Source: an uncultured Gammaproteobacteria bacterium
GTDB taxonomy: Bacteria > Patescibacteriota > Microgenomatia > Levybacterales > UBA12049
DNA length: 64,000 nt
Assembly (NCBI GenBank): GCA_964571255.1
Contig: CAZNAA010000001.1
Coordinates: 620,666 to 684,665 of the forward strand
Reading direction: 5' to 3'
Shown here: positions 9,252 to 62,710 of the stretch, piece by piece
Position numbering within the stretch: position 1 is the stretch's first letter
Layout of the letters: each line of letters begins with the position of its first letter
Program-made: the position numbers and the translations under genes
Notes under the pieces: generated by a model
Database searches by the model: none
What the model saw: the letters and a program-made list of their open reading frames with translations, nothing else
Told to the model about the DNA's origin: nothing

Positions 9252-9401
9252 ATGGAAGGATTTTCTGCTCGAGCCTTTAGCTATTTAAAACAAATTTGGC
9301 CAACCATCTATCGAGGCATCAACTCTTTTTTCTACCTTTTCTTGTCATTTATGAAAAAAAGTGTTTCTCTTATGATTAGTCAAATGAAGGGAGGAGTGTA
9401 A
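9252..9401 (+). CDS. Small ORF (49 aa, hydrophobic) translationally coupled (TAATG) to downstream phosphorylase gene
   Basis: AAGGAGG 5 nt upstream of ATG 9252; MEGFSARAFSYLKQIWPTIYRGINSFFYLFLSFMKKSVSLMISQMKGGV; its 3' end supplies GGGAGGAG for next gene. Confidence 0.25.
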   Translation: MEGFSARAFSYLKQIWPTIYRGINSFFYLFLSFMKKSVSLMISQMKGGV

Positions 9402-27657: not shown

Positions 27658-30033
27658 TTATTTAGAAATCGTATAGATAATTTCTTCATTCTCAACTGAA
27701 AATACTACCTTACTTCCCCGTTGCAGCATATCTTGCAGTTTCATTTTCGCTAAAGCATCCTCAATCGTATCCTGAATATAGCGTCGTAAAGGCCTGGCTC
27801 CAAACTGATTATTAGCTCCATGTGTAGCAATAAAGCCCAAGATGCTTTGATCAAAGCTAACCAAAAAATCTTGTTCTTCAAGGTATTTTGTTAACGATGC
27901 AAGCATGAGCTTGGTCACTTCTATTTGTTCCTGCGCAGAAAGAGGTTCAAACATGATGACATCATCAAATCGATTCAAAAGTTCAGGAGTATACAACCCT
28001 TGTGTTTGCAAAAATTCTAACAGATCTGTTTTCAACTGTTCTGCTTGAGTTTCTGCTTGAATTTTTTCTCGAATAAATTCTGCCCCTGCATTTGAAGTTG
28101 CAATAATGATTGCATTTTTAAAGGACACAACTCTTCCTAACGCATCTGTTAGTCTTCCATCGTCAAGTACCGGAAGGAGAAGATTTAAAACATCTCTGTC
28201 TGCTTTTTCAAATTCATCAAGAAGAATAAGACTAGAGGGATGATCCCGAACAGCTTCTGTTAATTCTCCTCTTCCATTATTTCCTCCAGGCATGCCAATC
28301 AGTCTCGCAACTCCTTCTGCTCCTCTAAATTCACTCATATCAAATCGAAGCATTTTCCCTTCTCCTCCAAAATAGACTGAGGCTAAGGCTTTAGCTGTTT
28401 CTGTTTTTCCAACTCCGGTTGGACCTAGAAACAGAAACGAAATAGGTTTTTTAGGAGGTTCTATATTTGACCGAATTCGCCTCACTGCCTCGGCAATTGC
28501 CACAGTTGCGTGCTGTTGACCAATAATTCTCTCTTGTAACTTGTCTTCAAGGGACAAAAGAGTTTTCTTTTCTTCTTGGCTTGGAGGAAGAGCCGTCGCA
28601 ACCCCTTTTTGTCCAACCGTTTGAGCAACATCTGATTCTTCTAAGAATTGTACTTGTCTTGTCTGGTGGACCCGTTGCCTGACATATCGGATACTGTCCT
28701 CAAGAAGGTTTATCGCACTTCCCGGAAGAACAACGTCTTGGGCATAAGAATCAGAGAGGCGAATTGATTCACGTAAGGCTTGATAACGGATTTTTACTCC
28801 AGTTCGTTTCTCTAAGTCTTCAACTTTTTCACATAAGATATGGAGTGCCGTTTGTTTATCAGGCTCTGAAATAGTAATAACCGTAAAAGCCTCACGAGCT
28901 GGACTATTTTCTAAGTATTGCTTATAGGCAGCTTGGGTCATAGTTGCAATAACAGGAAGTTTCCCATTTTTTAAATAAGGAAGGAGCGCTTCGGCAATAT
29001 TTACCTGGAAAGTAGGATTTCCCAGAATGTTTTCTAAGGCTGGAATATACAAAAGTACGTTATAAGAATGAGACACTTCTTGAATAATGGTTTGTAGCCT
29101 CGTTTCCAAATCAGCTCTATTAGCTGCTCCTGCCAAAAGTTGTCCTACCATTAACTCCAAAATTCGTCTGAAATTTAACTTTTCGGTAAGATTTCCAGAT
29201 TCTGTATCAAAAGCAAAGGCTTTTATGATACTCTCCTTCCCTACACCAATATCTCCAACCAGTAACACGTTATTATTCTCTGGTTTCTGAAGCGTTCCAA
29301 TTAACTCTTCATATTTTGCCTCTCTACTAAATAAATGAGGCCTTTGATAAGAGGAATAATAAAATTCTTGCGTATACTTTTGCGTTTCTGGGGTCCAGCC
29401 AGAAACTACTGCGTCTCCTATTCCTCTGCCACTGACCCGTACTCGAAACGGTTGTGGGTTTTCTTCTTCTGGATGAGCCATTCGAACCCAAGAGAGAAGA
29501 ACAAGGAGATCCTCTCGTTTTAAGTGGAGATTAAAAAGGGTTTGGCTTTGTTCCTCAATAAGCAACAAATAAGAAGCTAATAAATCCATTCGTAAAATGT
29601 ATTTACCCTTCACTTCTGTTGCTAATTCATAGGCAGTACGTAATAGTTGTTGCTGATCCACAAATATCTGAGGAATCATCTGTTTCTCAACTCCAAACCG
29701 GGTGAGAAAGAACTGCCCTTCAACCGTATTTAAAATATTGATTATTCCCCTTGTTCCTTTTTGATAGGCCAAAAGAGCATCAAGCGTACAACACTGGGTT
29801 AAATCAGAAGGATTTTCTGGAATCGTTTTATCAGGCATCATATGGCCTATTTTTCCAAAAACAAACAGCTCAGACGTAATTAAAAATTGAGTTAAAAAAA
29901 GCAAATAAGGAAAAAGGACTTTAGTCTCCCAAGAAAGATAGGCCAAATAGCTTAGTATTAAGACGCCTACTCCTCGAACAATAAGAAATTGCCAGGAAGT
30001 ATAGACTTGATAAATATGGGCAAAATATTTCAT
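27658..30033 (-). CDS. Hsp100/Clp-family ATPase paralog: N-terminal 2-TM anchor + Clp_N-like repeats, degenerate AAA D1 (Walker A GDIGVGKES, Walker B lost), intact D2, no M-domain
   Basis: TMs FLIVRGVGVLILSYLAYLSW / VLFPYLLFLTQFLITSELFVFG; D2 [55 protein letters not shown]; start overlaps upstream gene stop (ATGA). Confidence 0.85.
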   Translation of the reverse strand: MKYFAHIYQVYTSWQFLIVRGVGVLILSYLAYLSWETKVLFPYLLFLTQFLITSELFVFGKIGHMMPDKTIPENPSDLTQCCTLDALLAYQKGTRGIINILNTVEGQFFLTRFGVEKQMIPQIFVDQQQLLRTAYELATEVKGKYILRMDLLASYLLLIEEQSQTLFNLHLKREDLLVLLSWVRMAHPEEENPQPFRVRVSGRGIGDAVVSGWTPETQKYTQEFYYSSYQRPHLFSREAKYEELIGTLQKPENNNVLLVGDIGVGKESIIKAFAFDTESGNLTEKLNFRRILELMVGQLLAGAANRADLETRLQTIIQEVSHSYNVLLYIPALENILGNPTFQVNIAEALLPYLKNGKLPVIATMTQAAYKQYLENSPAREAFTVITISEPDKQTALHILCEKVEDLEKRTGVKIRYQALRESIRLSDSYAQDVVLPGSAINLLEDSIRYVRQRVHQTRQVQFLEESDVAQTVGQKGVATALPPSQEEKKTLLSLEDKLQERIIGQQHATVAIAEAVRRIRSNIEPPKKPISFLFLGPTGVGKTETAKALASVYFGGEGKMLRFDMSEFRGAEGVARLIGMPGGNNGRGELTEAVRDHPSSLILLDEFEKADRDVLNLLLPVLDDGRLTDALGRVVSFKNAIIIATSNAGAEFIREKIQAETQAEQLKTDLLEFLQTQGLYTPELLNRFDDVIMFEPLSAQEQIEVTKLMLASLTKYLEEQDFLVSFDQSILGFIATHGANNQFGARPLRRYIQDTIEDALAKMKLQDMLQRGSKVVFSVENEEIIYTISK

Positions 30034-30377
30034 ATGGCAGATACGATACTCATGATAACAAGAATGGTAACGACAAAAGGAAATCCAATAATAAAACTCA
30101 AAAGGAGTAGCTCAATAAAAAGAATCGGAAGCATCAGAATAAGCCACGTTAAAATAATACATAGTTTCACAAAAATTCCCATCACAATAGAGAATCTCAC
30201 AAGTCCTTCTCGATATTCATTTTTAATTGGTTGAAAAAAGGTTTGGAGAAGCATTTTTATGGAGAACATATGCATAAATGCCTTATTAAATGAGAGAAAA
30301 AAAAGTACTGCTTCTCGAGGTACTTCAATAAACCAAAAATGCAGAAAATAAAGAGGCAAAAGGGAGATATGTGACAT
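30030..30377 (-). CDS. Small polytopic membrane protein (115 aa, ~3 TM)
   Basis: hydrophobic ORF embedded in operon. Confidence 0.5.
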   Translation of the reverse strand: MSHISLLPLYFLHFWFIEVPREAVLFFLSFNKAFMHMFSIKMLLQTFFQPIKNEYREGLVRFSIVMGIFVKLCIILTWLILMLPILFIELLLLSFIIGFPFVVTILVIMSIVSAI

Positions 30378-30415
30378 GCTTTCAGTCTAAAGGGTTTTTA
30401 ATGGGTTTGCAATTT

Positions 30416-33280
30416 CTATGCAGCTGCAGAAAGTGTCGCACCCGTTGCTGGAGGTTTCGGAGCATCAGGCTGTGACTGATTAAACTCTTGCGTCGGTGGT
30501 AAATTCCACCCAGAAGAAGAAGCAGCAGGAGGAGGAGGTACAGCTGATACAGGGGATGAACTCATAACTGGTGCACCTTCAGTTATTGGAGGCAGCGATG
30601 ATACAGGAGAAGGGGTAGAAGCGAGTAGAGACGGAGGTACCTCTACTGGAGGCATTTGAGATGTGTCAGCAAGATTCTTTTCACTCATTGGATCAATTTC
30701 ATCTAGTTTTGCATCAGGAGTTGGAGGGATTTCTTCTCCTTGAACAGGAGAGGCATCCGGTTTTGCACCACCTGCACTAGCAGAGCCTTTAGCAAAGGTG
30801 AATTCTGATTTTGTAGCGTCGTATCCAACTAAAATAACATCAGGTGAGGCAAATGTTTTCCCAATAAGCTTGACTGCGATGGGATTTTCAATAGAGGTTT
30901 GAATCAACCGTCGTAACGGACGAGCTCCATAGACTGGATCATATCCTTCCTTGGCAAGCTCCATGAGAGCAGATTGGGTAATTTGGAGATCAAGTCCTTG
31001 CTCTTGAAGCAGATGGGCTGTTTTGGCAATATTATTTTTGGCAATTGAGGCCATATCAGCTTGTGCTAGAGGCTTAAAGACAACTACTTCATCAAATCGA
31101 TTCAAAAGCTCTGGCTTGAAAAACTTATGCAACTCATCAGAAAGAAGTGAATTAAGGTCTGCAAAGTCTTTCTGATACTCCTCCTCAGTTGCATGAGGTT
31201 TGCTCATTTGCTGCTGGATCAAAGCACTTCCGATATTTGAAGTAGCAATAATAATGGTGTTTTTGAAAGAAATAGTATTTCCTTTGTTATCCGTAAGTCT
31301 CCCATCCTCAAGCAGTTGCAGTAAAATATTAAAGACATCAGGATGGGCTTTTTCAATCTCATCAAGAAGCACAATGGAGTACGGTTTTCGTCTTACTGCT
31401 TCTGTTAATTGACCACCCTCTTCATAGCCAACATAGCCTGGAGGAGCTCCGATAAGCTTGGCTACTTCATGTTTTTCCATATACTCACTCATATCAAGTC
31501 GAACAAGTGCGTCTTCTTTGCCAAAAAGAATTTCAGCTAGGGTCTTGGCCAACTCTGTTTTTCCAACTCCAGTAGGGCCGAGGAAAATAAATGAAGCAAT
31601 CGGACGAGTAGGACTTGCGAGTCCAATTCTTCCTCTTTGAACTGCCTCTGTTACTGATTGGACAGCTTCTTCTTGCCCAATAAGACGTTTGTGGATAAGC
31701 TCAGCCAAGTGAAGTAGTTTTTCTCCTTCATCTTCAGTCAATTTAGTAATAGGAATCCCTGTCCAACTACTTACAACCTTTTCAATATCTGATTTGACTA
31801 CTGCTGTATCTGTTTTTTTACCTGTTGAGTGTTGCAGCTTAACATCTGCTGCAGCCTCATCCATCAAATCCACTGCTTTATCTGGCAAAAATCTCTCTCC
31901 AATATATTTTTTTGACAAATGGACTGCGTCTTTTAAGGTTTCATCTGAAAAAGTCACACTATGAAACTTCTCATATTTTGGCTTAATGATTTGAAGCATC
32001 TCAACTGCAACTTCCTCAGTTGGTTCGTCAACTATAATTGGCTGAAAGCGTCTTTCAAAGGCTTTATCCTTTTCAAAATGCTTCCGATACTCACTGGTTG
32101 TTGTCGTTCCAATAAGCTGCAACTGTCCCCGAGCTAGATAGGGTTTAACAATATTTGAAGCATCCAGTGCTCCTCCCTCATCTCCTGCTCCAATAAGAGT
32201 ATGAATTTCATCAATGAAAAGAATGATCTCTCCACTCGCCTCAATGGTTTCTTTAATAACATCTCGAAGTCTCTCCTCAAACTCTCCCCGATGAGATGCT
32301 CCGGCCACAAGAGAGGCAAGATCCATTTGAATAATTCTTTTACCTGAGAGATCTTTTGGAGCAGTTCCTCCCACAATTGATTGAGCAAGGCCTTCAACAA
32401 TAGCCGTCTTTCCAACTCCTGCCTCTCCAATGATAATAGGATTATTTTTCGATCTTCTGAGTAAAATATGCACCATTCGCTCAATTTCTTTATCTCGTCC
32501 TGCAATCGGATCTAATTTTCCGTCTTTGGCTTGTTGAGTGAGATCAATTCCATATTTCTCCAAAACTGATTTTTTTCCCGTGTGATAGGTGGGATTTTTA
32601 GCAAGAGACTGAACAAGCTTATCTTTTTGAATTCCCTTCTCACTGAGTGCTTTATTCATCGATTCCAAAGAGGCAAGAGCTACGAGGAGATCTTCAGGTG
32701 AGATAAAGGCAACTCCTCGTCCTTTCACGTCCTTATATGCAGCATCAAAAACTGATTTGGTTTGATCACTCAGTTTTGGCTGCCCTGAAAAATTCCCTGG
32801 AATTTGTTTCGCTTGGATTTCTTTAGAAAGGGCTCCAACATCTACTGATTCTTTTTGCAAAAGAGCAAAAATTTCTTGATCAAAAAGAATTCCATATAAA
32901 AGCAAATCTGGCTCAATCTTTTCTTTTTTCAATCTTGTTGCTTCTTCTTGAGCATGGGTCAAGGCTTGGGAAGATCTCGCATCTAGATGAGAAAGAACTG
33001 ACATGTCTTGCTTGGTTGCAGGATCTAAGGAAGAAGACGTTGAGGCAACAGGTGTTTGTCCTATAGGAGCTTCTGGATCAAGAGGAGTTGGATCATTAGG
33101 AACAGGAGATACAGGCGTACTCGTTGCACCTGAAGAAGCTAATGGAGCTTGAGGTACAGGAGTAGCTACTGGCTGAGCAGATGGTGTTTGTCCGTCTTCT
33201 GGTTTATGAAATAAATTACCAAACATAGTTCCATTATGGACATAAGTTTTGTCAAAAAGCAACTTATAACCTGTCTTCAC
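30416..33280 (-). CDS. ClpA/ClpC-type Hsp100 ATPase (two Clp_N repeats, canonical D1 and D2, no long M-domain) with Pro/Ser/Thr-rich N- and C-terminal extensions
   Basis: D1 [32 protein letters not shown]; D2 [56 protein letters not shown]; 954 aa; overlaps upstream gene by 17 nt. Confidence 0.9.
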
Positions 33281-36200
33281 TTACAGGAGCTTTTTCCTCT
33301 GTTTTACTTGGTGGAATCTCTTCTTTTATCTCCATGTGTTGCACCTTCATCTCAGGCTTTTTCTCGTCACGTCTGGCAGGAAGTTTTGATTCTTCCTCTT
33401 GCTCTTTTTTATCGACATCCTCAAGTACATCTTTGGCTGCTTCTTGTTTGGCCTTCAAATAGCCAACAATTTCTGTTTGTGAGAAGCCTCCAATAAGAAG
33501 GAACGGCAGAATACCTGATACTTTTTTCATTCCTTCCTGTCTTTTTTCATTGACTGGAGAGGAAAGAAGGTTAATGGCCTCAGTAATCTCTTCAATATCT
33601 TGACTGATAAATTGAGCCTTTGGTACTTTTTGTCCTTGTCTAATTGGTTCATCGAGATTTTCATAGTTTTCCTTCCAGATTTTTTTGACTGCTTCATAAT
33701 CCTCAAGTGAGACGTTTTGAACTCTATTCACAACGGGGAAGGAGACATCTTTTTTAATCAGTGAGGTATTGGGTTTTTGCTGGCGTTGTTTGACCAACAA
33801 ACTATAAATAAATCCAGCTAACTGATCACCCTTGTCTTTGGCCTTTACTAGTTCCTCTTTGACTTTCTCAACGGTAACTACAGGCTGTACAGGTGTAACC
33901 GTTTGGATAAGTTGAGTAGCAAAAGGTGTTTGTTGTTGAGCCTCAAGACGGATTTGTTGGGTGAGATTAAAGACTGTTTCTTTACTCGCTTCTCCTCTTC
34001 CCTCAATCATATCCAAAAGTTGCGTGGCAAGTTTGTTGCCTTTTACTTGCTCTTCTTTAATAAAGGTAAGAAGTACTGTGTAGGACTCTTTCTCTTTTTG
34101 ATCAGTAATAAGCTCTGGTTTAAGAAGTTTCTCAACAATCTCTGTAACTTTTTGTGACTGAACTGGAGCAGGAGTAGATTGGACAGGAGTAGTTTGTTTT
34201 TGAACAAGTGTAGAAAGAACCGATTGGAGAGTTGTACTTCCTCGTACTTCTTTTATCGTTTGAGTTACTTGCTTAATCAGATCTTGCGTAATATTTTGAG
34301 GTGATTGGAGAATAGGGAGAAGTTGAGTAGCTAACTGATCACCTTTTTGGGCATCTTTGACAATCGTTTCTCGAATAGTCATAGCTGTTTCTTTTTCTTT
34401 TTGAGGAAGCAAATCAGGTTGAGCTAGGTGTTGGATAAAGGTAGCAACATGATTTTCTGTAATTTCCGTTGTCCCTTGTTGCAAATACGTATTGGTAATG
34501 TAGTTTACAACTGATTGATCTGTTTTATTAACTTGGCTCATTTGCTGAGTGAGAGAATTCATAACAGATGGAGAAAGAGATTGCGTTTGGGTAATAAGTG
34601 AGAGCAGTTGACGAGCTAGTGGAGTACCCAACACTGCTTCTTTCGTAATCGTTTCTTTCAAAACTTCTATATTTTGCTTGTCAGAAATGTTGGTAATCAC
34701 CTCAGGATGTGCGAGTTGGTTAATAATAGTAGTTAAGGCTTGCTCTGTTGAAACAGCTTGGGTACTACTCGACTGATCAGTTTTGGAGGAGATATATTGA
34801 TTAAGAGTTGTGGCAAAAGAGTTTCCCGCAACAGATTGCTGGCTTACGGTCTCTTTGACTTTCTCATAGACTGTTTTTTCGGTTATTTGAGTAACTCGCT
34901 CAGGTGTTGCAATGTTATTTAAGATATTAATTAACACTGGTCTGTCGTCTGAAACAGTAACAGGAGTTGAAACAATAGCACTGGATGCTTGCAATACGAC
35001 ATTGGCAAATTGATTCCCTCTTTGACTTTCATTTCTTAACGTCTCTCGAATCCTTTCAAATTGTTGTCTTTCAACAGGAGTTCTAGCCAGTTGAGGATTT
35101 GAGATTTGTTGGAGATTTTGAACAGACACAGGAGTACTCGTTTGCGTTGTTGTTGTCGTTTTTATTTGATTAGTATCGAACATGGCAATATCTCGCATAG
35201 TAGGAATTGCTACTTGGATTTGTTTGAGAACTTCATTTAACCTACTCACCTCTGTACTTCGAATAACAGGAGTTGATTGCTGCTGTTGCACTGAAACCGT
35301 TTGTCTTAATGGCCTTGCTTGAGGCAGTGACTTGGCCTGAGAGGCTGGAGTAACCGATTGAACGATAGGTTCTGAGAAAGGAAGTTGCAGCTTTCGTCCA
35401 AACGGCAAACTGAGAGCCTTTCCAGTTGGGAAGGAAGGAGGAGTAGGTGGAGGTGGTGGAGATAGTGGTTGACGATTAAGCATAGTATTTGAGAGAGCAA
35501 GAAACTGCTTCATTCCTGGAGCATCATTTAAAGCAAGACTAAATAGATAATCAAGAAAAATACGAAGCAAGATAAAGGGCAAAATCATAACAGCCCACAG
35601 CATCATGAGACAAATAGTGTAGAGAGCAAACGTTTCAGGAAGATTCACGCTACTGGCAAGACCAATAGCTTGTCTTGGTCCTCCTAGTAAAATATTCACT
35701 GCTGTTTGATAGACAGGAGTTGCCGTTTTCGTAACAATAGTTCCTGTTGGTTGATAAGAAAAAAGCGGAATGGTTGATTGCCACAAAGAGACAAGTCCTG
35801 CAAGGAGTACGGCAAAAAGAGGGCCATATAATACCCACCGGAAAAACTCCCCTATCCAAATTTTAGCGGTATTTCGAATCGGCCAGTAGAAAAGAAGCAG
35901 AGGGAAAATGGGAGAGATAATAATAAAAAACCACAATACTATTTTTCGAATAATAAGCATGGCAGCCATGGCATAATAGGTAACTGCAGTAAGTCTGGTT
36001 AAAAGAAGCGTCATGAACGCTGACTCATCAGTAAAGGAGTCTACTCGCTTGTACCCGATAAAGTCTTCATATTTAAATGCAATATTTAGCAAATTTTCTT
36101 GACTAATTGTTTGACGCACTGCAGCAGTGGCGGGATCTGGATTTCGCAGGAAAAACCCTTGGGTAATATCAGTTAGTTGATAAATGATCTGGACCATTCC

Positions 36201-36584
36201 AAATGAAAAGGTGACTAGAAGTAAAATTCCCACAAAGCGGGGAATAAATTTTTGCAAGCTAATATTACTTCCCCTAGTTATGAGCATCAAAAACGCTGTT
36301 GAGAGAATAAAGAGAGCAAAGAATGCATAGACAAGATTTCTGATAATAATCCAGAAAGGAATGAGAGGGTTTCCTTCGTTGCCTAACTGCACCCATTTGT
36401 AGTTTTCCAACGTCCAATCCAAAAACGCTCCAGCTCGTGCAGCTGTTTTTCCAACAAAGGTTACTTCATTATCAACAACCCACGTTCCAACTAAGTCAGC
36501 TGCAAAAATATGAGAGGGAACAAAGAACAAAAGAATACTAAAAATGGTAAGAAAAAGAAGAAAGTTGGGCAGCAAGCGTTTCAT
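33264..36584 (-). CDS. Large membrane protein (1106 aa): signal peptide + ~7-8 TM N-terminal module, poly-Pro linker, ~600-aa Gln/Thr/Ser-rich region of ~6 degenerate tandem repeats, acidic/Lys tail
   Basis: repeat signatures ETIVKDAQKGDQLATQLLPIL / ETITKEAVLGTPLARQLLSLI / EEQVKGNKLATQLLDMI / KAKDKGDQLAGFIYSLL / RNESQRGNQFANVVLQ / QQSVAGNSFATTLNQYI, each preceded by (H/Q)PE(V/L)IT-like segment. Confidence 0.8.
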   Translation of the reverse strand: MKRLLPNFLLFLTIFSILLFFVPSHIFAADLVGTWVVDNEVTFVGKTAARAGAFLDWTLENYKWVQLGNEGNPLIPFWIIIRNLVYAFFALFILSTAFLMLITRGSNISLQKFIPRFVGILLLVTFSFGMVQIIYQLTDITQGFFLRNPDPATAAVRQTISQENLLNIAFKYEDFIGYKRVDSFTDESAFMTLLLTRLTAVTYYAMAAMLIIRKIVLWFFIIISPIFPLLLFYWPIRNTAKIWIGEFFRWVLYGPLFAVLLAGLVSLWQSTIPLFSYQPTGTIVTKTATPVYQTAVNILLGGPRQAIGLASSVNLPETFALYTICLMMLWAVMILPFILLRIFLDYLFSLALNDAPGMKQFLALSNTMLNRQPLSPPPPPTPPSFPTGKALSLPFGRKLQLPFSEPIVQSVTPASQAKSLPQARPLRQTVSVQQQQSTPVIRSTEVSRLNEVLKQIQVAIPTMRDIAMFDTNQIKTTTTTQTSTPVSVQNLQQISNPQLARTPVERQQFERIRETLRNESQRGNQFANVVLQASSAIVSTPVTVSDDRPVLINILNNIATPERVTQITEKTVYEKVKETVSQQSVAGNSFATTLNQYISSKTDQSSSTQAVSTEQALTTIINQLAHPEVITNISDKQNIEVLKETITKEAVLGTPLARQLLSLITQTQSLSPSVMNSLTQQMSQVNKTDQSVVNYITNTYLQQGTTEITENHVATFIQHLAQPDLLPQKEKETAMTIRETIVKDAQKGDQLATQLLPILQSPQNITQDLIKQVTQTIKEVRGSTTLQSVLSTLVQKQTTPVQSTPAPVQSQKVTEIVEKLLKPELITDQKEKESYTVLLTFIKEEQVKGNKLATQLLDMIEGRGEASKETVFNLTQQIRLEAQQQTPFATQLIQTVTPVQPVVTVEKVKEELVKAKDKGDQLAGFIYSLLVKQRQQKPNTSLIKKDVSFPVVNRVQNVSLEDYEAVKKIWKENYENLDEPIRQGQKVPKAQFISQDIEEITEAINLLSSPVNEKRQEGMKKVSGILPFLLIGGFSQTEIVGYLKAKQEAAKDVLEDVDKKEQEEESKLPARRDEKKPEMKVQHMEIKEEIPPSKTEEKAPVSEDRL

Positions 36585-51668: not shown

Positions 51669-53813
51669 CTAAACTACAGAGATTACTTCAACTGTTCCAC
51701 CACAAACGCGTGTAATAAGCTCTGTTACTTCAGTAAGAACGGATTGCACTCTCTCTTCTGTAATTCCTTCTCCTCCATCGACATTAATATACAGATTTTT
51801 CGTTTCCTCAGTTACTGCAGTTCGGACACTATCTCTATAGTTTAGATCTAAATTAAATGGTCCTACTTGATCGGTGTATATCATCTCTCCTTTTTTAATA
51901 GAAGTTTCCTCCGCTTCTCCAAGCAAATGAATTTTCTCTTCTCCTTTTGCAAGAGTTAGTTTCGTTGGGAATTCTAATTTTTCCATATCAAATACACCAA
52001 TTGATACTTTGTGTTTCAAAACCACAACGTTTGCTGCATCTACTGCTGTGTTGACGTTGTATACCTCTTTTCCACTGGCAAGACGTCTCAGGAGTGCTTC
52101 AGGACTAGGACGGCGTGAGTGATAGTCTACTCCCATGGTTTTATACATTGCTCTATAAGACTGAACTTCTGGAATTTCATTAATTTGTTCATTCGTTAAT
52201 CCAGCAAGGGATGTGACTACTTCTCCTTTTTCTTTTTCTAACTCTTCTGAAAGTTTTGTAACAGAGACTCCTTTAATAACCGCTACTCCCACCTTTATTG
52301 CTGGGAATTTTTGTAATACTGTTGAATCAATAGTGAGTTGCTCATTTGACACACTTTGTATAGAGGGAGCACTGTCTGATTTTAAGGTTGGGAACATCAC
52401 TACTTCTTTAATTCCCCATTTATTGGTGAAAAACATTGTGAGTCTATCAATTCCTACCCCAATTCCTCCAGTTGGTGGCATGCCATGCTCCATGGCAAGA
52501 AGGAAGTCTTCATCAAGTTGTTGTGCTTCTTCTTTGTCTTTTCGAGCAGCAACAACGTCTTTGGTAAATCTTTCTCTTTGAATAACAGGATCTGTCAACT
52601 CAGACCATCCATCAAAAATTTCTTTGCCTCCAACGTATCCTTCAAATCTCTCTACCCATCCCGGTTTACTCCTGTGAGGTTTTGAGAGAGGACTCACGTC
52701 TTCTGGATAATCAATAATCCAAGTTGGTTCACTCAGTTGTTTTGGAATTAAATGATCAAAGATCATAAAGATAAGTTGTCCTCTCGTTTCTCCTCCTAAA
52801 AGTTCCATATGAGGACAATGAAGTTTGGCAAATTCAAGAAGAGATGCTTCTGTCTCATCATCAACATCTAGTCCCAATTTTTCTTTAAGAATCTCAGTCA
52901 TAGAGATTCTTTTCCACTCTCCTCCAATATCAATAGTTTTATCTTCAATTTGGAGTGTGGTGTTTCCATTGAGTTTTTGGGCGATATGTTTGCAAAGTCC
53001 TTCTGCTACATCCATCACCCTGTTATAGTCTGCATACGCCTCATACCACTCAATCATGGTAAATTCTGGAAAGTGAGTTTGATCAATGCCTTCATTTCGA
53101 AAATCTTTACAGATCTCATATACTCTCTCATATCCACCAACCATCAAACGTTTCAGATATAACTCATCAGCAATTCGCAAATAGACGTCTTTATTTAACG
53201 CATTTAAATGAGTTTTAAAAGGTTTTGCATTAGCTCCACCATAAAGTGGTTGCAAAGTAGGGGTTTCGACTTCCCAGAATCCTAAATTGTCTAAATATTC
53301 ACGTACTGCGCGAACAAGTTTGGTTCGAGTATTAAATCTCTCCCGAACTTCTGGGTTAAGAAGTAAATCTAAATATCTTTGGCGATATCTCGTCTCAACG
53401 TCTTTTACCCCGTACCACTCACTAGGAAGCGGACGAAGGACTTTGGTTAAGAGAGTATAACTGGTTGGAGCAATAGAAACTTCCCCTGCAGTTGTCATAA
53501 CAATTTCTCCCTCAACGCCAACAAAATCTCCCAGATCCAAAAGTTTTAAATGATCATAGAGCTCTCCAAGGAGTTCTTTTTTAAGAAAAAGTTGGATTTT
53601 CCCTGTTTCATCTTTCAAATCAGCAAAAGAGATATTTCCATGAGAGCGAAAAGACGTGAGTCTTCCTGCAGTTTTCACTGTTTTTCCTTCCATCTCACGA
53701 GCTTGCCCAATCGTTTGTTCTTTAGGATAGGACGCAGGGTATGGATTCCAGCCTAAAGCTCTAATTCGCTCTAGTTTTTCAATCATTTGTTGACGCAGGT
53801 TTGAGTCTTCCAT
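51669..53813 (-). CDS. lysS: Lysine--tRNA ligase (class II) fused to ~215-aa C-terminal B3/B4-like tRNA-binding/editing-type domain
   Basis: OB anticodon domain; class II motifs (FRNEGIDQTHFPEFTMIEWY; GGIGVGIDRLTMFF); C-terminal NTAVDAANVVVLKHKVSIGVFDMEKL matches B3/4 N.VD..N...L..G.P.H.FD signature. Confidence 0.85.
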   Translation of the reverse strand: MEDSNLRQQMIEKLERIRALGWNPYPASYPKEQTIGQAREMEGKTVKTAGRLTSFRSHGNISFADLKDETGKIQLFLKKELLGELYDHLKLLDLGDFVGVEGEIVMTTAGEVSIAPTSYTLLTKVLRPLPSEWYGVKDVETRYRQRYLDLLLNPEVRERFNTRTKLVRAVREYLDNLGFWEVETPTLQPLYGGANAKPFKTHLNALNKDVYLRIADELYLKRLMVGGYERVYEICKDFRNEGIDQTHFPEFTMIEWYEAYADYNRVMDVAEGLCKHIAQKLNGNTTLQIEDKTIDIGGEWKRISMTEILKEKLGLDVDDETEASLLEFAKLHCPHMELLGGETRGQLIFMIFDHLIPKQLSEPTWIIDYPEDVSPLSKPHRSKPGWVERFEGYVGGKEIFDGWSELTDPVIQRERFTKDVVAARKDKEEAQQLDEDFLLAMEHGMPPTGGIGVGIDRLTMFFTNKWGIKEVVMFPTLKSDSAPSIQSVSNEQLTIDSTVLQKFPAIKVGVAVIKGVSVTKLSEELEKEKGEVVTSLAGLTNEQINEIPEVQSYRAMYKTMGVDYHSRRPSPEALLRRLASGKEVYNVNTAVDAANVVVLKHKVSIGVFDMEKLEFPTKLTLAKGEEKIHLLGEAEETSIKKGEMIYTDQVGPFNLDLNYRDSVRTAVTEETKNLYINVDGGEGITEERVQSVLTEVTELITRVCGGTVEVISVV

Positions 53814-55703: not shown

Positions 55704-55819
55704 TAAAAAACCCCTCAGTGAGGGGCTACTATTTTTTGGTGTGTACCACCAGAAAACCCCTCGTTAGGAGAGGTTCTTCTTACTTGCAACTGTTACGTTT
55801 TGAAATGTCATAAAAATAA

Positions 55820-57383: not shown

Positions 57384-58343
57384 TCATTTTATGACCTCTA
57401 CTTCTGGATCAAGAGTAAATCCAAATGTTTCTTGGCATTTATCCTGAATCGCTTTTATAACAGCTAATACGTCTTGAGATTTGGCTCCTCCAAGATTATT
57501 GATAAAATTTCCATGTCGTTCAGACACTTGAGCTCTTCCTACTTTATATCCTCTAAATCCCATATGAGTAATTAAATATCCTGCCGAAACTTTTCCATGC
57601 CATTTTGTTTTGATTGTCTCCTCAAGTTCTGGAAGTACTTTAATCACTTTTGCAATTTCTTCAGGGGACTCAATATTTTTAAAGACAGATCCTGTATTAG
57701 GATATTCATGAGGATGATTTGTTTCCCTGTATTCAATATGTTCTTTATAAACCTCTTTTGCTTTTTCAACTTCTTCCTCCGTTGCAGGAAAAAGTTGAAA
57801 AGTTGCCGAAATAAGAATGAGTTCCTTGTTATGTTTAACAACACTTCCTCGATATTCAAATTCCATTTCACTCTTTTGCAGTGTTTTGGTTTTGGTTGGA
57901 TCTGAAAGTGAAAAAACTTCACACGACACAAAAGTATTTTTCAATTCTCCTCCAAAGGCTCCAACATTTCCTCGAACAGCAGCACCTATTGTTCCTGGGA
58001 GTCCTCCTGCCCATTCAAGTCCAATAAATCCGGCAGCAAAACCTTCTTGAATAAGCGTATCCAGTAATTCTCCGGCAAAAACAGTAACTCTTCCATCTTT
58101 AGTAAATTTCAATGGTTCTTTTGATTCATTAAAACGCAGCACTGCTCCATCAAAATACTTATCAGTAAAAAGAATATTGGCCCCAGTTCCAACCACCACA
58201 ACATTTTTTAATTTTTGCTCGGAAATATATTGCAGCGCAGTTTTAACGTCTTCAATTGAGGAAATATCAAAAAGGTGTTTTACTGTCCCACCAATTTGAT
58301 ACCAAAGGATCTCACTAATTGGAAAATCTTCATATACAACCAT
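57384..58343 (-). CDS. murB: UDP-N-acetylenolpyruvoylglucosamine reductase
   Basis: FAD-binding GTGANILF, C-terminal SAGYLI...GFRGYKVGRAQVSERHGNFINNLGGAKSQDV. Confidence 0.85.
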   Translation of the reverse strand: MVVYEDFPISEILWYQIGGTVKHLFDISSIEDVKTALQYISEQKLKNVVVVGTGANILFTDKYFDGAVLRFNESKEPLKFTKDGRVTVFAGELLDTLIQEGFAAGFIGLEWAGGLPGTIGAAVRGNVGAFGGELKNTFVSCEVFSLSDPTKTKTLQKSEMEFEYRGSVVKHNKELILISATFQLFPATEEEVEKAKEVYKEHIEYRETNHPHEYPNTGSVFKNIESPEEIAKVIKVLPELEETIKTKWHGKVSAGYLITHMGFRGYKVGRAQVSERHGNFINNLGGAKSQDVLAVIKAIQDKCQETFGFTLDPEVEVIK

Positions 58344-58347
58344 ACAG

Positions 58348-60138
58348 TTAACTTTCAGTTTCCATTGATACAGAGGAAACAAGATGATCAGGAAGGCGCA
58401 AAAGGCCCTCGTCTAATCTTTTTTGATCTAGAAAGTGGGCAATAAATCCAACACTTCGTGACAGGACAAATAAACTATTGAAAAATTCTTGAGTTACCAA
58501 TTCTTGCAGCTCTTCAGGACTTATGCCTTCTTTTTCTGAAAGAACATCAAGTAAAACTGCCGCAATAGCTCCGTCAATGTTTAAGATTAAATTTCCTTTC
58601 TTGCTACTCGTTACCTTCTCAACCTCAAGAGCAAAACTGGTATAAACTTTTTTCTCACAACTTTCAATAAAGGTAAGAAGCTTTTTTACTCTTGGATCAG
58701 GAAGATCTACTCGGTATTTTTTATGCCCTATTCCTAAGATATATTCATTTCGTGAAGCAAACGACTCAACAAACTCAGAAGCTTGAGTTTTTTCACTTAC
58801 TCCTTTTAGCCAATTACCAGCTGCTTCATTGACTGCTCCTCCAAAACGAGAACCAATGGTAAGTAAACCTGATGCTAAGGCTGAAACTAAATCCCTCCCA
58901 GCTCGGGCTGTAACAATGGTATTCACTGCTCCTGAGACGTGTGGTCCGTGATCAATAAGAAGTTTTAAGATAAACTCCACTACCTTTTCTGTTTCTTTGG
59001 ATTTGATTTGTTTTCCCAAAAAAGCTGATGCGACAAGGTAAGCAAACGAGTTGTTCTCAACGAGTGAGAGGAGTGAGGAATTGAGAAAATAGGCCTCTCC
59101 ATCTTTCTCCTGTGAAAGAGAGGTGGTGATTAAGGATTGGGAGCGATTTTTAATCTCATCCATATGCGTAGTATACGACTTCTCAGTGTGCTTGGATAGA
59201 GATGGAATTTGACCAACTAGAGAAACAAACTCTTCAAAAGAAGTAGCAACACTCATTCCCACTTCTTTTAGTCGCGCTCTTTTGGCCTTCGCACTCTCAT
59301 CCACAGTTCCTGCCATAGCCTTAGCATGACCAAATTGGGGAGGAGTTGGGAACAGATCGGAAACAATTCCAGCAATGTAGCAAACTGTTGGTTTAGTAAG
59401 TTTCTTCTGCTCATAAAGAGTAGCAATTTCATACTCATCTACTCCCCCTAACTCTCCGTAATATACAATGTGAGTTGTTTGGGAATCATTTTCTGCAAGT
59501 AAAAAAGCGTCTTTTGGACTAGTAAGGGGAAATCTATCTCCTCCCATATGCAACCCAAAAGAAATTCTTTTTCCACTCGTTGTCACTATTCGCATCAACT
59601 CATTAGTCATCCCGCCTGATGCTGAGATAACCGCAACACTTCCTCCATCTAGTAAATCTCCATCTAAAAATTGCACTGCATCAGTTCCTCCAATAGCACC
59701 ACTTTTCAAAAACCCAGGAAGAAGAAGACCAATACTTGCTGGTCCTAGAATTAATTTGTCTTTTGTCATTGTTAACAGTTCAAGTGCTTGTCTTTCCGGA
59801 ACGTCTTCAGCAAAGATGGTTAATACTTTTAACTTAGGGAGGGAAAGGGCATCTTTGGAGGAGTGTAATACTCTTCTTCCAGAACGAACGTTAATAGCAA
59901 CGGTTATTTTTTCTTGAAATGACTGAGGAAGTGAAGCAATGGATTCAAAAACAGGAAGTAATATTTCTTTTTTTCCAAAATAAAACTTTTCATACTTTCT
60001 TCCTGTTGAGAGAATGGCACAAAGACTAGGTTTTTCTTTTCCCAATAAAAAATCATAGTCCAAAATGGATTGAATAATCCCTTTGTGACTTCCAATCATA
60101 AGAATATTTTGATTACCTGATCTGAGTGCTTGTATCAT
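58348..60138 (-). CDS. aclA: ATP-citrate lyase large subunit AclA-like (CoA-binding/succinyl-CoA-synthetase-alpha-like + citrate-synthase-like domain)
   Basis: ILGIGHKKYRVDLPDPRV matches ACLY GIGHRVKSINNPDMRV; His-loop region; 596 aa. Confidence 0.8.
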   Translation of the reverse strand: MIQALRSGNQNILMIGSHKGIIQSILDYDFLLGKEKPSLCAILSTGRKYEKFYFGKKEILLPVFESIASLPQSFQEKITVAINVRSGRRVLHSSKDALSLPKLKVLTIFAEDVPERQALELLTMTKDKLILGPASIGLLLPGFLKSGAIGGTDAVQFLDGDLLDGGSVAVISASGGMTNELMRIVTTSGKRISFGLHMGGDRFPLTSPKDAFLLAENDSQTTHIVYYGELGGVDEYEIATLYEQKKLTKPTVCYIAGIVSDLFPTPPQFGHAKAMAGTVDESAKAKRARLKEVGMSVATSFEEFVSLVGQIPSLSKHTEKSYTTHMDEIKNRSQSLITTSLSQEKDGEAYFLNSSLLSLVENNSFAYLVASAFLGKQIKSKETEKVVEFILKLLIDHGPHVSGAVNTIVTARAGRDLVSALASGLLTIGSRFGGAVNEAAGNWLKGVSEKTQASEFVESFASRNEYILGIGHKKYRVDLPDPRVKKLLTFIESCEKKVYTSFALEVEKVTSSKKGNLILNIDGAIAAVLLDVLSEKEGISPEELQELVTQEFFNSLFVLSRSVGFIAHFLDQKRLDEGLLRLPDHLVSSVSMETES

Positions 60139-61277
60139 ACGTTTATTGCTTGTTTGACTATTTCAGAAATGGTCATATCAGGACCAGATACTGCTCCGTA
60201 GAGATTTTTATCTTTTAAGAATTGCTCCATTAGTGCTAAGCCTTTTTTCTGATTCGGCCCACCACGCCTCACATAGACTTTTACTTTTTCTTTGACTAAT
60301 TTTTCACTTTCTTCGTCTAAGGCTTGGATTACTCCAGTAAAGGTTTTGGCAATATCCGTAAAGTTGGCTACTCCTCCTCCAATAATAATACGTTTGTTCT
60401 GTGCCGTACTCTTAAAAAGAAGACTGAGTAACTCTTTGGTATACAAATAGGTTTCCTCAGTCGTTGGGTTCCCACTATACTCTCCATAATTTGCAATCTC
60501 TTCTCCTTTACCACTTTGTGCAATTTCATCAGCAATAACTAAACTTGCTCCTCCTCCAGACATGAGTAAAAAGATACTTCCATTTTTATTAAGTACCGTT
60601 AAGGAAAAAGAGGCTTGGGACTTTTCAGAAAGATCCTTAATGTGTTTTTCTTCCTCAGTTATTTTTTGAAAAGGAAGCGCAAAATCCTCTTCATTCCAAA
60701 AAGAGGTTGCAAAGAAGCTAGCTGCTGTATCTACTTCACACGCAATATCAAGTGGAAGAAACTGAGATTGCTTATACACAAACGGATTTATTTCCAAGAA
60801 AGAAAGATACGCATCATTAAAAAGTGTCACAAGGGTAGGAAGAAGTTGTGGATCTATTCCTTCAAGTGAAGGGATCTCTTTTGTAATAAGATGTTTTATA
60901 ACTTCACTTTCCTCTTCTATATGCACTCCCCCTTTTTTTGAGTACAAAAGGTGAATACCATCTCGCTCTCGTGTAAGAGAGAGGTATTGCTCCTCATCTG
61001 ATTCATGAGGAATATATGGCTCAAGTAAAAACGTGCTATAACCTTTCTCCATCCAATCAGAAAGAAGTGATTCAATATCTCCTTTGGCAATATTTACCTT
61101 GACGAGTCCTGACAGAAAACGTTTTTTTACTCCCTGATCTACTTTCAAAACATATTGTCCCTCAGGAATACTGTGCACTTGACTCATATCAGTAAGAGAA
61201 ACTCCAGAATAAGAGAGAGAAAGAGCGTGGAAAACAAGTGTCTTACTGGAAAATTCCGATAACCGTTGTCGTGCCAT
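60135..61277 (-). CDS. aclB: ATP-citrate lyase small subunit AclB-like (ATP-grasp, succinyl-CoA-synthetase-beta-like)
   Basis: FLLMSGGGASLVIADEI...ANYGEYSGNPTTEETY...IIGGGVANFTDIAKTF...VYVRRGGPN aligns closely to the ACLY N-terminal region; 4-nt overlap with aclA. Confidence 0.85.
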   Translation of the reverse strand: MARQRLSEFSSKTLVFHALSLSYSGVSLTDMSQVHSIPEGQYVLKVDQGVKKRFLSGLVKVNIAKGDIESLLSDWMEKGYSTFLLEPYIPHESDEEQYLSLTRERDGIHLLYSKKGGVHIEEESEVIKHLITKEIPSLEGIDPQLLPTLVTLFNDAYLSFLEINPFVYKQSQFLPLDIACEVDTAASFFATSFWNEEDFALPFQKITEEEKHIKDLSEKSQASFSLTVLNKNGSIFLLMSGGGASLVIADEIAQSGKGEEIANYGEYSGNPTTEETYLYTKELLSLLFKSTAQNKRIIIGGGVANFTDIAKTFTGVIQALDEESEKLVKEKVKVYVRRGGPNQKKGLALMEQFLKDKNLYGAVSGPDMTISEIVKQAINV

Positions 61278-61315: not shown

Positions 61316-61780
61316 CTACTCAATAGCTTTAATCGTATATTCTATTTTCCCAGATGGTGCAGCTACGACTGCTTTTTCTCCAATCTTTTTTCCAAGAAGT
61401 GCTTTTCCAAGAGGAGATTGATCAGAGATTTTTTTCTTTCTAGGATCTGCTTCCCATTCACCAACAATCCGATATTTTTCTTCTTTTCCATTCGTTACGG
61501 TAACTGTTGAACCAACCGAGACAACCCCTGTTGTTTTTTTGGAATCATCAATCACACTTACTTGCTTAAGCAGTTCTTCAAGCTCACTAATTCGATCATC
61601 CATAAAAGACAATTCGTCACGTGCTGCTTGATATTGAGCGTTTTCAGAGAGGTCTCCCATCTCACGAGCCGTCGTTAATTGAGAGACAACTTCAGGTCGT
61701 TTTTTATGGACCAAATCATCGTATTCTTTCTTTAGCTCAGCTAGTCCTTGAGCTGTTAAATATTGTTTTTTTGCTTTCAT
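61316..61780 (-). CDS. greA: Transcription elongation factor GreA
   Basis: MKAKKQYLTAQGLAELKKEYDDL coiled-coil + FKBP-like C-domain; ORF-track start 61807 lies in an upstream terminator hairpin. Confidence 0.85.
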   Translation of the reverse strand: MKAKKQYLTAQGLAELKKEYDDLVHKKRPEVVSQLTTAREMGDLSENAQYQAARDELSFMDDRISELEELLKQVSVIDDSKKTTGVVSVGSTVTVTNGKEEKYRIVGEWEADPRKKKISDQSPLGKALLGKKIGEKAVVAAPSGKIEYTIKAIE

Positions 61781-61818
61781 AATAAACCTAAAAATAAACC
61801 CTCCCAAGTACTGGAGGG
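61781..61818 (-). terminator. Intrinsic terminator CCCTCC-N8-GGAGGG + UUUAUUUUUAGGUUUAUU ending at greA ATG
   Basis: stem 61799-61804/61813-61818; U-tract 61781-61798 on minus strand. Confidence 0.5.
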
Positions 61819-61861
61819 AAATGTCAAATCGAGTGCAGTATAGATAATATATTGAGCCTTG

Positions 61862-62710
61862 TCAATGTGGTATAGTACTCGTTTTAGCCTCAAATTCTCT
61901 TAAAATACGCATGCGGTAATCTACTGGGTGAAAGGCAGCTAGATGGAGTGAAACTGTCTCAATTGTTTGCGTTTTTCGAATAGAAAAAAGCTGAAGATGG
62001 TAGCATAAAAAATTAAAAAACCGAGTTACTCCTAACACTTTTGAAGAGGGTGCAATAGAGGGAGAAATTGCGTTTTTTGCATTAGGAAAAAAGGGAAATG
62101 TCCAGGAGTTTTTCCATATAAATCTCTCATAAATACTTTCTTTGTTTATTACAGGAAATAATTGGTGAATTTCCCGAGCAGTATAGATATCTCGTTGTTT
62201 TTGGGGAAAACTCAACTTCTCTTCGTCAAGTAACATATTCACACAGACAAGCTCTGTTGTATTCACAGATTTTTTCGTTCGCAAAACTCCTTTGTATACC
62301 AAAAATAAAAGGACGATACACCGAGTAAGCCAGAGAGTATGGGACTTAGTAATTAAAAAAAGATCAATATCTCCTTTTTTTTGATATTGCCCAGCTCCTA
62401 AGCTTCCACTTATTCCAATAAAAAGAATCCAAGAAATAAAAGACAAAGGAGAAAGAAGTTTTTTCATCTCTTCTCTTTTCTCAGTCACTTTTTTTTCATT
62501 TATCACTCTTGTCTCAATCCATTCGTTTCTTCCTTTCAATGTAACAAAGTTGTCTTTTAACAGAAGTTCAGGCAAGTCAGAGAGCGTTTTGAGAAAAGAG
62601 ACATAGGAGAGTTTTTTGGGAAGAAAATACCAGAGTTCTCTTTGCGTTAAAGGAAAGTGAAAAATACTACTATACAAAAGTGGAATAAGAAAGGCTTTCT
62701 TACTGTCCAT
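61862..62710 (-). CDS. Hypothetical protein with minimal nucleotidyltransferase-like motif
   Basis: GISGSLGAGQYQKKGDIDLFLI (GS-x(n)-DxD); start uncertain (62737 or 62710). Confidence 0.35.
   Translation of the reverse strand: MDSKKAFLIPLLYSSIFHFPLTQRELWYFLPKKLSYVSFLKTLSDLPELLLKDNFVTLKGRNEWIETRVINEKKVTEKREEMKKLLSPLSFISWILFIGISGSLGAGQYQKKGDIDLFLITKSHTLWLTRCIVLLFLVYKGVLRTKKSVNTTELVCVNMLLDEEKLSFPQKQRDIYTAREIHQLFPVINKESIYERFIWKNSWTFPFFPNAKNAISPSIAPSSKVLGVTRFFNFLCYHLQLFSIRKTQTIETVSLHLAAFHPVDYRMRILREFEAKTSTIPH

Follow-up and report, generated by a model that had tools for sequence, protein, structure and literature searches.

ATP-citrate lyase (ACL) is known in several forms and settings. In eukaryotes it is a single fused chain of ~1100 aa with a regulatory linker (ACLY; human structures 6POE and 6HXH), which yields acetyl-CoA from citrate outside the tricarboxylic acid (TCA) cycle. 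In Chlorobium limicola (6HXJ) it is encoded by an aclB-aclA gene pair and serves a full reductive TCA (rTCA) cycle, and in Methanothrix soehngenii (Methanosaeta concilii), an organism that is no rTCA autotroph, it consists of the two subunits ACLY-A and ACLY-B (6HXI/6ZNW). In Hydrogenobacter thermophilus the same chemistry takes two steps, through citryl-CoA synthetase (CCS; 6HXQ) and a separate citryl-CoA lyase (CCL; 6HXP). Here, we describe an aclB-aclA gene pair in a stretch of 64,000 nucleotides (hereafter the window; GenBank assembly GCA_964571255.1, contig CAZNAA010000001.1, positions 620,666 to 684,665 of the forward strand), the host of which is a Levybacteria-like bacterium of the Candidate Phyla Radiation (CPR), the nearest named relatives of the window protein being from Candidatus Levybacteria/Levyibacteriota. 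We regard it as almost certain, judging from sequence, that the pair encodes a complete heteromeric ACL (EC 2.3.3.8). The two genes are as follows.

60135..61277, minus strand: aclB, ACLY-A-type small subunit of 380 aa with ATP-grasp and citrate-binding domains (open reading frame (ORF), Pfam, PDB match, AlphaFold2 (AF2) model, Foldseek)
58348..60138, minus strand: aclA, ACLY-B-type large subunit of 596 aa with a CoA-binding part resembling the alpha subunit of succinyl-CoA synthetase (SCS) and a citryl-CoA-lyase/citrate-synthase-homology domain (ORF, Pfam, PDB match)

The genes lie on the same strand and overlap by 4 nt (ATGA). A preliminary description of this DNA, made from its letters and ORFs, had named the pair a two-subunit ACL, and this identification is fully supported by domain architecture, full-length alignments, catalytic residues, predicted structure and phylogeny, all of which concur. 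AclB contains Pfam PF24948 Citrate_synth_N (ATP-grasp; 90.8 bits, cut-off 83) and PF16114 Citrate_bind, an ACL-specific domain (201.9 bits). Against solved structures, it matches Methanosaeta ACLY-A (6hxi_A) at 2.8e-65 and human ACLY at 2e-59, with weaker matches to Chlorobium (1e-36), CCS (2e-8) and SCS-beta (1e-4). The AF2 model of AclB, built with a 64-sequence alignment as input, has a pLDDT of 90.7 with no stretch below 50, and a Foldseek search with this model placed human ACLY and Methanothrix ACLY-A at the top (TM ~0.80), with Chlorobium ACL, CCS and SCS-beta behind them; the likeness to the N-terminal ATP-grasp region of ACLY noticed earlier thus holds by domain, alignment and fold. 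AclB is the shortest member of its family. AclA carries PF00549 Ligase_CoA followed by a C-terminal PF00285 Citrate_synt in one 596-aa chain, and its residues 12-589 form one unbroken alignment to human ACLY 499-1093 (7e-102). Its match to Methanosaeta ACLY-B (6hxi_B 14-605) is at 5e-99; Chlorobium AclA (4e-63) and citryl-CoA lyase (5e-20) match less well, and SCS-alpha and the CCS small subunit less still (1e-14 to 1e-17). The citrate-synthase-like signature previously ascribed to this product reads GIGHKKYRVDLPDPRV and lies at 58687..58734.

Functional residues of human ACLY, named in PMC10115795 (which lists F347 and does not mention H975), were mapped onto AclA and AclB via alignments, with the following sites located in the window.

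61119..61151, minus strand: AclB ATP-grasp nucleotide-site segment VLKVDQGVKKR, with K45 = human K58 and R53 = human R66 (residue mapping)
60357..60368, minus strand: AclB citrate-binding loop ANFT, N305/F306/T307 = human N346/F347/T348, invariant or near-invariant in 72 CPR AclB
59806..59808, minus strand: AclA single-codon site from the human ACLY mapping (PMC10115795), invariant in 198/198
59317..59337, minus strand: phosphohistidine loop QFGHAKA, AclA residues 268-274, H271 = human H760 (residue mapping)
58687..58734, minus strand: GIGHKKYRVDLPDPRV, motif of the citrate-synthase-homology domain, H472 = human H975 and K473 = human R976 (residue mapping)
58570..58581, minus strand: NIDG, D522 = human D1026, invariant in 198/198

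Human E599, H760, H900, H975, D1026 and R1065 correspond to AclA E111, H271, H397, H472, D522 and R561. The sole swap among the residues checked is a conservative one, from human R976 to AclA K473, and non-CPR ACLs, too, commonly carry K or R here. AclB keeps both its ATP-grasp residues (K45, R53, E96, N164 and D177) and its citrate-site residues (G241-243, G269, N305/F306/T307 and R338). H975 was added to the published list by us, as a residue we take to be functional in ACLY; the ligand-contact roles of the AclB residues, of which the published list names only F347, are partly assumed by us from ACLY crystal structures, and human K58 and R66 presumably contact the nucleotide. The checked positions are invariant or near-invariant across 198 CPR AclA and 72 CPR AclB, which points to purifying selection. 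The active sites of both subunits are intact as far as residue mapping can tell, and the enzyme is predicted to be catalytically competent. K273, which follows the phosphohistidine GHA, is a clade signature: both H and K are found in 198/198 CPR AclA, and nearly all non-CPR ACL/ACLY representatives have Gly here (GHAG), including those of Chlorobiaceae, the Methanothrix-like and DPANN-like forms and the fused, eukaryote-length forms. One CPR-clade representative, P0124, retains GHAG.

A search of 1.84 billion representative proteins (clusters at 50% identity, E <= 1e-30) showed ACL to be rare, with 134 matching clusters. From a one-genome-per-species scan, we analyzed 80 of 127 confirmed loci together with the window (81 loci in total), and those locus names that are informative point to Levyibacteriota, Saccharibacteria/Saccharimonadia, Woesebacteria, Roizmanbacteria and 'Patescibacteria group'; a basal representative comes from Dojkabacteria. 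In a neighbor-joining (NJ) tree of 66 sequences and 587 columns, CPR AclA formed a single clade with 100% bootstrap, and the rTCA-type enzyme of Chlorobiaceae (P0188, 31% identity) fell into a separate clade, also with 100% bootstrap; this is the comparison with Chlorobi AclAB that had been proposed as a check. The preliminary description had called an ACL in such a gene set unexpected, but the gene pair is no oddity of this genome and is a conserved trait of several CPR lineages. It had also named ACL the hallmark of the rTCA cycle, but the window enzyme is not of the rTCA type of Chlorobi and Aquificae. The rest of the tree comprises the Methanothrix-like cluster P0296 (695 bits to 6hxi_B), many fused forms of eukaryote length, and a two-subunit group with members from a Candidatus Norongarragalinales (DPANN) archaeon and from a contig bearing archaeal marker genes; this archaeal/DPANN-like group is closest to the CPR clade in the NJ tree, but with 10% bootstrap.

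Some members of the wider family depart from the usual form. P0128 (1003 aa) has the AclA part at its N-terminus followed by an extension of ~400 aa, with the histidines of the lyase domain replaced (H900 to R, H975 to C), and P0256 (1114 aa, the length of ACLY) is without E599, the phosphohistidine, H900, H975 and D1026 and may, by its residues, be a pseudoenzyme. On an archaeal contig (L084 3107..6104, with PcrB, Rpr2 and an AsnC-type regulator), the gene before aclA is a 93-aa Citrate_bind fragment, possibly from an aclB that is split or frameshifted; a 277-aa ORF without a Pfam match precedes it, and a 2-oxoacid:ferredoxin oxidoreductase pair adjoins.

Two explanations would remove the enzyme or the host from consideration, and we hold both to be extremely improbable. 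One is that the genes are a mis-identified succinyl-CoA synthetase (sucCD) or a citryl-CoA synthetase plus citryl-CoA lyase (ccsAB/ccl). The source annotations of homologues are inconsistent (hypothetical protein, citrate/2-methylcitrate synthase, succinyl-CoA synthetase alpha or beta subunit, ATP citrate lyase), which partly favors this reading, and a 2022 preprint reports that some CPR/DPANN sequences annotated as SCS or citrate synthase are monophyletic with CCS or CCL. However, the large subunit fuses the SCS-alpha-like part to the citrate-synthase-homology domain, Citrate_bind, a domain specific to ACL, is part of the small subunit, ACLY reaches a PDB score of 345 bits versus 55-75 bits for CCS, CCL and SCS, and the structure search puts ACLY over CCS and SCS. 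Taken as candidates in their own right, both were rejected. For succinyl-CoA synthetase, the NCBIfam scores were 94.7 against a cut-off of 336 (NF004230), 42.1 against 375.55 (TIGR01016) and 41.4 against 370 (NF001913), and AclA has an additional C-terminal lyase domain; the SCS alpha subunit is ~290 aa and has no citrate-synthase-like domain. For CcsAB/Ccl, the citryl-CoA lyase models scored 57-81 bits against cut-offs of 193-409, 6hxq and 6hxp scored 37-75 bits, and the lyase domain is fused in AclA, where a separate lyase protein of ~260 aa would be expected. A grouping with SCS, raised in the preliminary description as the contrary outcome, was not found, because the SCS equivalog scores lie far under cut-off and the ACLY matches are far stronger. 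The other explanation, that the genes are contaminants from binning or assembly, or were acquired horizontally very recently and have nothing to do with host biology, has in its favor that many related metagenome-assembled genomes (MAGs) bear the implausible label 'uncultured Gammaproteobacteria'. Against it, the acl genes lie within a contig of 772,860 bp with CPR-typical genes on either flank, their G+C of 0.38-0.39 equals that of the surroundings, the order SBP-F11-greA-aclB-aclA is common to named Levyibacteriota MAGs, homologues lie on contigs of up to a 938-kb chromosome (L070), and the CPR clade is monophyletic. As to the label, dozens of MAGs titled 'uncultured Gammaproteobacteria bacterium' (L001, L003, L005, L007, L009-L012 and many others) carry aclBA; these resemble Levybacteria in synteny and are 55-61% identical to the window protein, and the label is apparently a placeholder or an error.

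In the window, the gene pair is flanked on both sides by genes on the same strand.

61837..61865, minus strand: sigma-70-like promoter match upstream of greA, TTGACA-17-TATACT, 11/12 (best match; consensus only)
61316..61807, minus strand: greA (Pfam GreA_GreB_N, GreA_GreB; 154 aa in an independent gene call)
57384..58343, minus strand: murB, UDP-N-acetylmuramate dehydrogenase, 319 aa (Pfam MurB_C, FAD_binding_4; TIGR00179 196.5 against a cut-off of 144.5)
55709..55727, minus strand: terminator-like hairpin with T-run downstream of a Wzy_C gene (pattern match only)

The adjacency of murB and greA to the pair, reported in the preliminary description, is exact: murB starts 4 nt past the aclA stop, with the same start in the independent gene call, and greA is 38 nt upstream of aclB. 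It is probable that murB is part of the same operon as aclBA and that greA is its first gene, and a putative transcription unit greA-aclB-aclA-murB-(132 aa)-Wzy_C, ending at the hairpin, is possible. The boundaries of this operon are only suggestive, because promoter- and terminator-type matches are no commoner in the window than in shuffled sequence.

We called and clustered ORFs in the 81 loci. The aclB-aclA pair is present in 74/81, with most of the remainder truncated, and the commonest spacing is the 4-nt overlap seen in the window. The flanks vary by lineage, and the recurrent partners are operon-tight, typically spaced by <=30 nt or overlapping. Many of these partners make cell-wall precursors or amino sugars. 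For example, murB lies directly or nearly downstream of aclBA in 27 loci, glmM immediately downstream in 6-7 loci, and glmS a few genes away in up to 7 loci, with a 1-nt overlap with aclA in L074; ddl is immediately upstream in 3 loci, and DapL is a neighbor in 1. A second group consists of acetyl-CoA enzymes: a GNAT gene overlaps the end of glmM in 8 loci (7-8 when glmM-GNAT is counted as an operon-tight unit), another GNAT follows murB in 5, and Acyl_transf_3 O-acyltransferases are adjacent in at least 5. Overall, a peptidoglycan or amino-sugar gene lies <=3 genes from aclBA in 41/81 loci, an acetyl-CoA enzyme in 21/81, and either in 48/81. Threonine dehydrogenase and glycine C-acetyltransferase (tdh-kbl) are operon-tight with aclBA in the following 4 loci.

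L008, 4579..6785: tdh-kbl pair
L013, 9795..11993: tdh-kbl pair
L050, 10529..12743: tdh-kbl pair
L026, 9854..12070: tdh-kbl pair

Two non-homologous dehydrogenases are involved, of the zinc alcohol dehydrogenase (Zn-ADH) type in three loci and of the short-chain dehydrogenase/reductase (SDR) type in L026, where the protein matches PDB 2yy7, among solved L-threonine dehydrogenases, at 6e-112. In 5 loci of one CPR sub-lineage (L044, L051, L057, L065 and L068; e.g., L068 2671..4209), an archaeal-type phosphoenolpyruvate (PEP) carboxylase (TIGR02751, 483 bits) is encoded 4-5 genes upstream of aclB, and pyridoxal-phosphate aminotransferases are among the recurrent neighbors, which with PEP carboxylase touch the oxaloacetate node. 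The same 5 loci also have a gene that, judged by eye, resembles a dCTP deaminase, as well as a 564-aa, secreted-looking protein with no Pfam match. Curated equivalog cut-offs were reached by GlmM, GlmS, MurB, Ddl, DapL, PEP carboxylase and one Kbl, and Tdh was the top match but below its cut-off. Neither the window nor the recurrent neighbors of the 81 loci showed a TCA enzyme, a separate citrate synthase or SCS.

Using these findings, we propose as somewhat probable that this complete ACL, in its greA-aclB-aclA-murB string, provides a non-cyclic supply of acetyl-CoA (and oxaloacetate) from imported citrate for envelope synthesis. By the mechanism of the family, ATP would phosphorylate H271 of AclA, the phosphate would pass to citrate bound by AclB, attack by CoA would give citryl-CoA, and cleavage involving E111 and D522 would release acetyl-CoA and oxaloacetate. 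The enzyme would act outside any TCA or rTCA cycle. We infer the direction of flux, the import of citrate and the sinks of acetyl-CoA: citrate from a host or the environment would be turned into acetyl-CoA for the N- and O-acetylation of cell-envelope sugars, including the route from UDP-GlcNAc to UDP-MurNAc via MurB, and for other acetylations, and the oxaloacetate would be at hand for making aspartate and diaminopimelate. UDP-GlcNAc synthesis requires acetyl-CoA, and the substrate of MurB is a UDP-GlcNAc derivative. Saccharibacteria genomes encode GlmS, GlmM and MurB, i.e., an acetyl-CoA-requiring pathway, and complete genomes of this group are reported to be without pyruvate dehydrogenase, as well as pyruvate:ferredoxin oxidoreductase (PFOR), with 'acetyl-CoA metabolism lacking' (PMC6031116). 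CPR bacteria are reported to be generally without a TCA cycle, and a complete Microgenomates genome to be without TCA and autotrophic pathways (PMC7143001). The suggestion in the preliminary description that acetyl-CoA may be generated from scavenged citrate remains a proposal, but it is the reading best supported by the neighborhoods of the 81 loci, and it fits the Saccharibacteria report.

The main rival, which we consider unlikely, is that ACL works chiefly backwards, as a citrate synthase that yields ATP (acetyl-CoA + oxaloacetate + ADP + Pi to citrate + CoA + ATP). Reversal would save the energy held in the thioester of acetyl-CoA, whether formed from threonine by Tdh-Kbl or from other sources, would draw oxaloacetate from PEP carboxylase or transamination, and would see citrate excreted or handed to a partner. 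Desulfobacter postgatei offers a precedent, its ACL serving substrate-level phosphorylation (Moller et al. 1987, as cited in PMC9768450 and PMC8085960), and reversal would suit the operon-tight, acetyl-CoA-producing tdh-kbl with its two non-homologous dehydrogenase types, the PEP carboxylase (an irreversible former of oxaloacetate) and the fact that neither the window nor the recurrent neighbors showed a separate citrate synthase; speculatively, the clade-specific Lys by the phosphohistidine could shift the phosphoryl-transfer equilibrium. On the other side, citrate would be a dead end without aconitase and isocitrate dehydrogenase and would need export, and the conversion of acetyl-CoA to acetate, by ADP-forming acetyl-CoA synthetase or Pta-Ack, yields the same ATP at no cost in PEP or oxaloacetate. 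Furthermore, the commonest neighbors use acetyl-CoA or make cell-wall precursors (murB, glmS, glmM-GNAT, Acyl_transf_3, ddl) and are not fermentation genes, and Saccharibacteria are reported without routes from pyruvate to acetyl-CoA (PMC6031116), so that acetyl-CoA would be scarce, not in surplus. A reductive TCA (Arnon-Buchanan) cycle with ACL as its key enzyme, by which the organism would fix CO2, is very improbable. ACL is the classical marker of this cycle, and CPR aclAB has been filed under it: in PMC12577380, one sentence mentions Saccharimonadia MAGs enriched in aclAB and a supplementary table enters them under 'Arnon-Buchanan cycle' (3/11 MAGs), its supplementary tables giving no counts for the TCA, ppc and ackA KEGG entries searched. 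Nevertheless, no 2-oxoglutarate:ferredoxin oxidoreductase, fumarate reductase, PFOR or other cycle enzyme occurs among 43 ORFs of the window or the recurrent neighbors of the 81 loci, the CPR clade is split from the Chlorobiaceae enzyme, CPR genomes are reported without TCA and autotrophic pathways (PMC7143001, PMC6031116), and the contig is ~0.77 Mb.

Several observations weigh against our proposal of acetyl-CoA supply from imported citrate. The ACL reaction is near equilibrium, so its direction is set by metabolite levels, and tdh-kbl as an acetyl-CoA producer and PEP carboxylase as an oxaloacetate producer fit the reverse direction at least as well. Citrate must cross the membrane whether ACL runs forward or in reverse. 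No citrate transporter was recognized in the window, and a hydrophobicity screen with Pfam analysis of polytopic neighbors found none consistently linked to aclBA. These neighbors were Acyl_transf_3, MFS, Wzy and AI-2E proteins and one MatC/CitMHS carrier, the latter in L041 only. This MatC_N/CitMHS di-/tricarboxylate carrier (L041 9206..10456, minus strand) is encoded three genes from aclA, and its closest homologues are from Roizmanbacteria, Dojkabacteria, 'Patescibacteria group' and a Nanoarchaeota archaeon, a family rich in CPR/DPANN members; tblastn found it nowhere else in the locus DNA, and its homologues on other contigs examined were not beside acl. The substrate of the GNAT after glmM did not emerge from NCBIfam and PDB, which gave weak, generic GNAT matches only. 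The neighborhood counts are inflated by shared ancestry among the loci, and for this reason the weight rests on the number of distinct architectures (at least 6). Finally, at least one Microgenomates genome has PFOR and acetyl-CoA synthetase (ACS) (PMC7143001), and PFOR, ACS or citrate-using enzymes may be encoded in this organism outside the window.

We scanned 43 window ORFs against Pfam, namely aclA, aclB and 41 others, and the latter are translation, chaperone, RNA-processing and cell-envelope genes or have no Pfam match, in keeping with the reduced gene set remarked upon earlier. They include three aminoacyl-tRNA synthetases, FtsK, RNase J, PNPase, IF-2, NusA, two ClpB-like ATPases, a DnaK/DnaJ/GrpE/HrcA set, TatD, a sortase, an MraY-like transferase, a UbiA prenyltransferase, an O-antigen-ligase-like protein and a solute-binding protein. 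None of the 43 encodes a TCA or other central-carbon enzyme, and no tRNA or Rfam element matched within the 64-kb window, across which G+C is even (0.36-0.43). Four other regions of the window drew our attention. On the minus strand, 51669..53813 encodes a 714-aa class II aminoacyl-tRNA synthetase (tRNA_anti-codon and tRNA-synt_2, Asp/Lys/Asn type) with a C-terminal B3_4 domain, which is otherwise typical of the PheRS beta subunit, and 27658..36584 holds a 1106-aa ORF without a Pfam match followed by two ClpB-like AAA+ genes side by side (791 and 954 aa). On the plus strand, 9401..10675 encodes a protein of the thymidine/AMP-phosphorylase family (Glycos_trans_3N, Glycos_transf_3, PYNP_C), a type presumably tied to the CPR nucleoside-salvage route, and 6123..8495 encodes a 790-aa protein whose sole Pfam match is a marginal Baseplate_J (22.4 bits), with the sortase gene directly after it.

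Much of bacterial diversity belongs to the CPR, but the sources of central intermediates in these bacteria, and what their hosts supply, are mostly obscure. Searches of full-text papers turned up none that analyzes ACL in CPR bacteria. What we describe is a member of a known enzyme family that forms a CPR clade of its own, and its physiological setting had earlier been noticed only in passing. Saccharibacteria build acetylated cell-wall sugars yet are reported without a route from pyruvate to acetyl-CoA (PMC6031116), and a conserved ACL linked to cell-wall genes offers a concrete, testable answer, with citrate going in and acetyl-CoA and oxaloacetate coming out. In addition, aclAB in metagenomes is routinely scored as reductive-TCA carbon fixation, and the CPR clade is not of the rTCA type; such scoring would therefore yield false positives. 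A broader idea, which we put forward tentatively and hold to be rather doubtful, is that CPR ACL, and through related enzymes possibly that of DPANN, is a cytosol-style generator of acetyl-CoA and oxaloacetate fed by host citrate in ultra-small symbionts, with citrate as a main carbon currency of episymbiosis and GHAK as the sign of a tuned third ACL lineage. If true, citrate would be the source of the acetyl groups of peptidoglycan, and perhaps of aspartate-derived diaminopimelate, in these symbionts, and a third lineage marked by GHAK would stand beside the rTCA type and the eukaryote/Methanothrix type.

Compared with the known systems, the window enzyme shares homologous domains with the H. 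thermophilus pair of CCS and CCL, but the lyase that is separate there is fused here to the alpha-like subunit, and the scores are weak (37-75 bits). The C. limicola enzyme and the Chlorobiaceae cluster P0188 have in common with it the family, the aclB-aclA layout and the catalytic residues, and are more distant (4e-63 and 1e-36; 31% identity), fall into a separate clade and serve a full cycle. The ACL of D. postgatei, by the same secondary accounts, is likewise a prokaryotic ACL outside CO2 fixation, working in the ATP-forming direction, but inside a complete oxidative TCA cycle, and it is likened here by function only. M. soehngenii ACLY-A/ACLY-B is the best or near-best match, with two subunits in the same domain order; the identity is ~30-40%, however, the CPR enzymes form their own clade with GHAK in place of GHAG, and CPR AclB has 380 aa versus 421 aa. 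With human and other eukaryotic ACLY, the window enzyme shares the corresponding catalytic and ligand residues (R976 being K473 here) and the same proposed role, although its two subunits come from overlapping genes and the bacterium has no compartment from which to export citrate. In this role, by analogy, it would most likely be the bacterial counterpart of the eukaryotic cytosolic ACLY.

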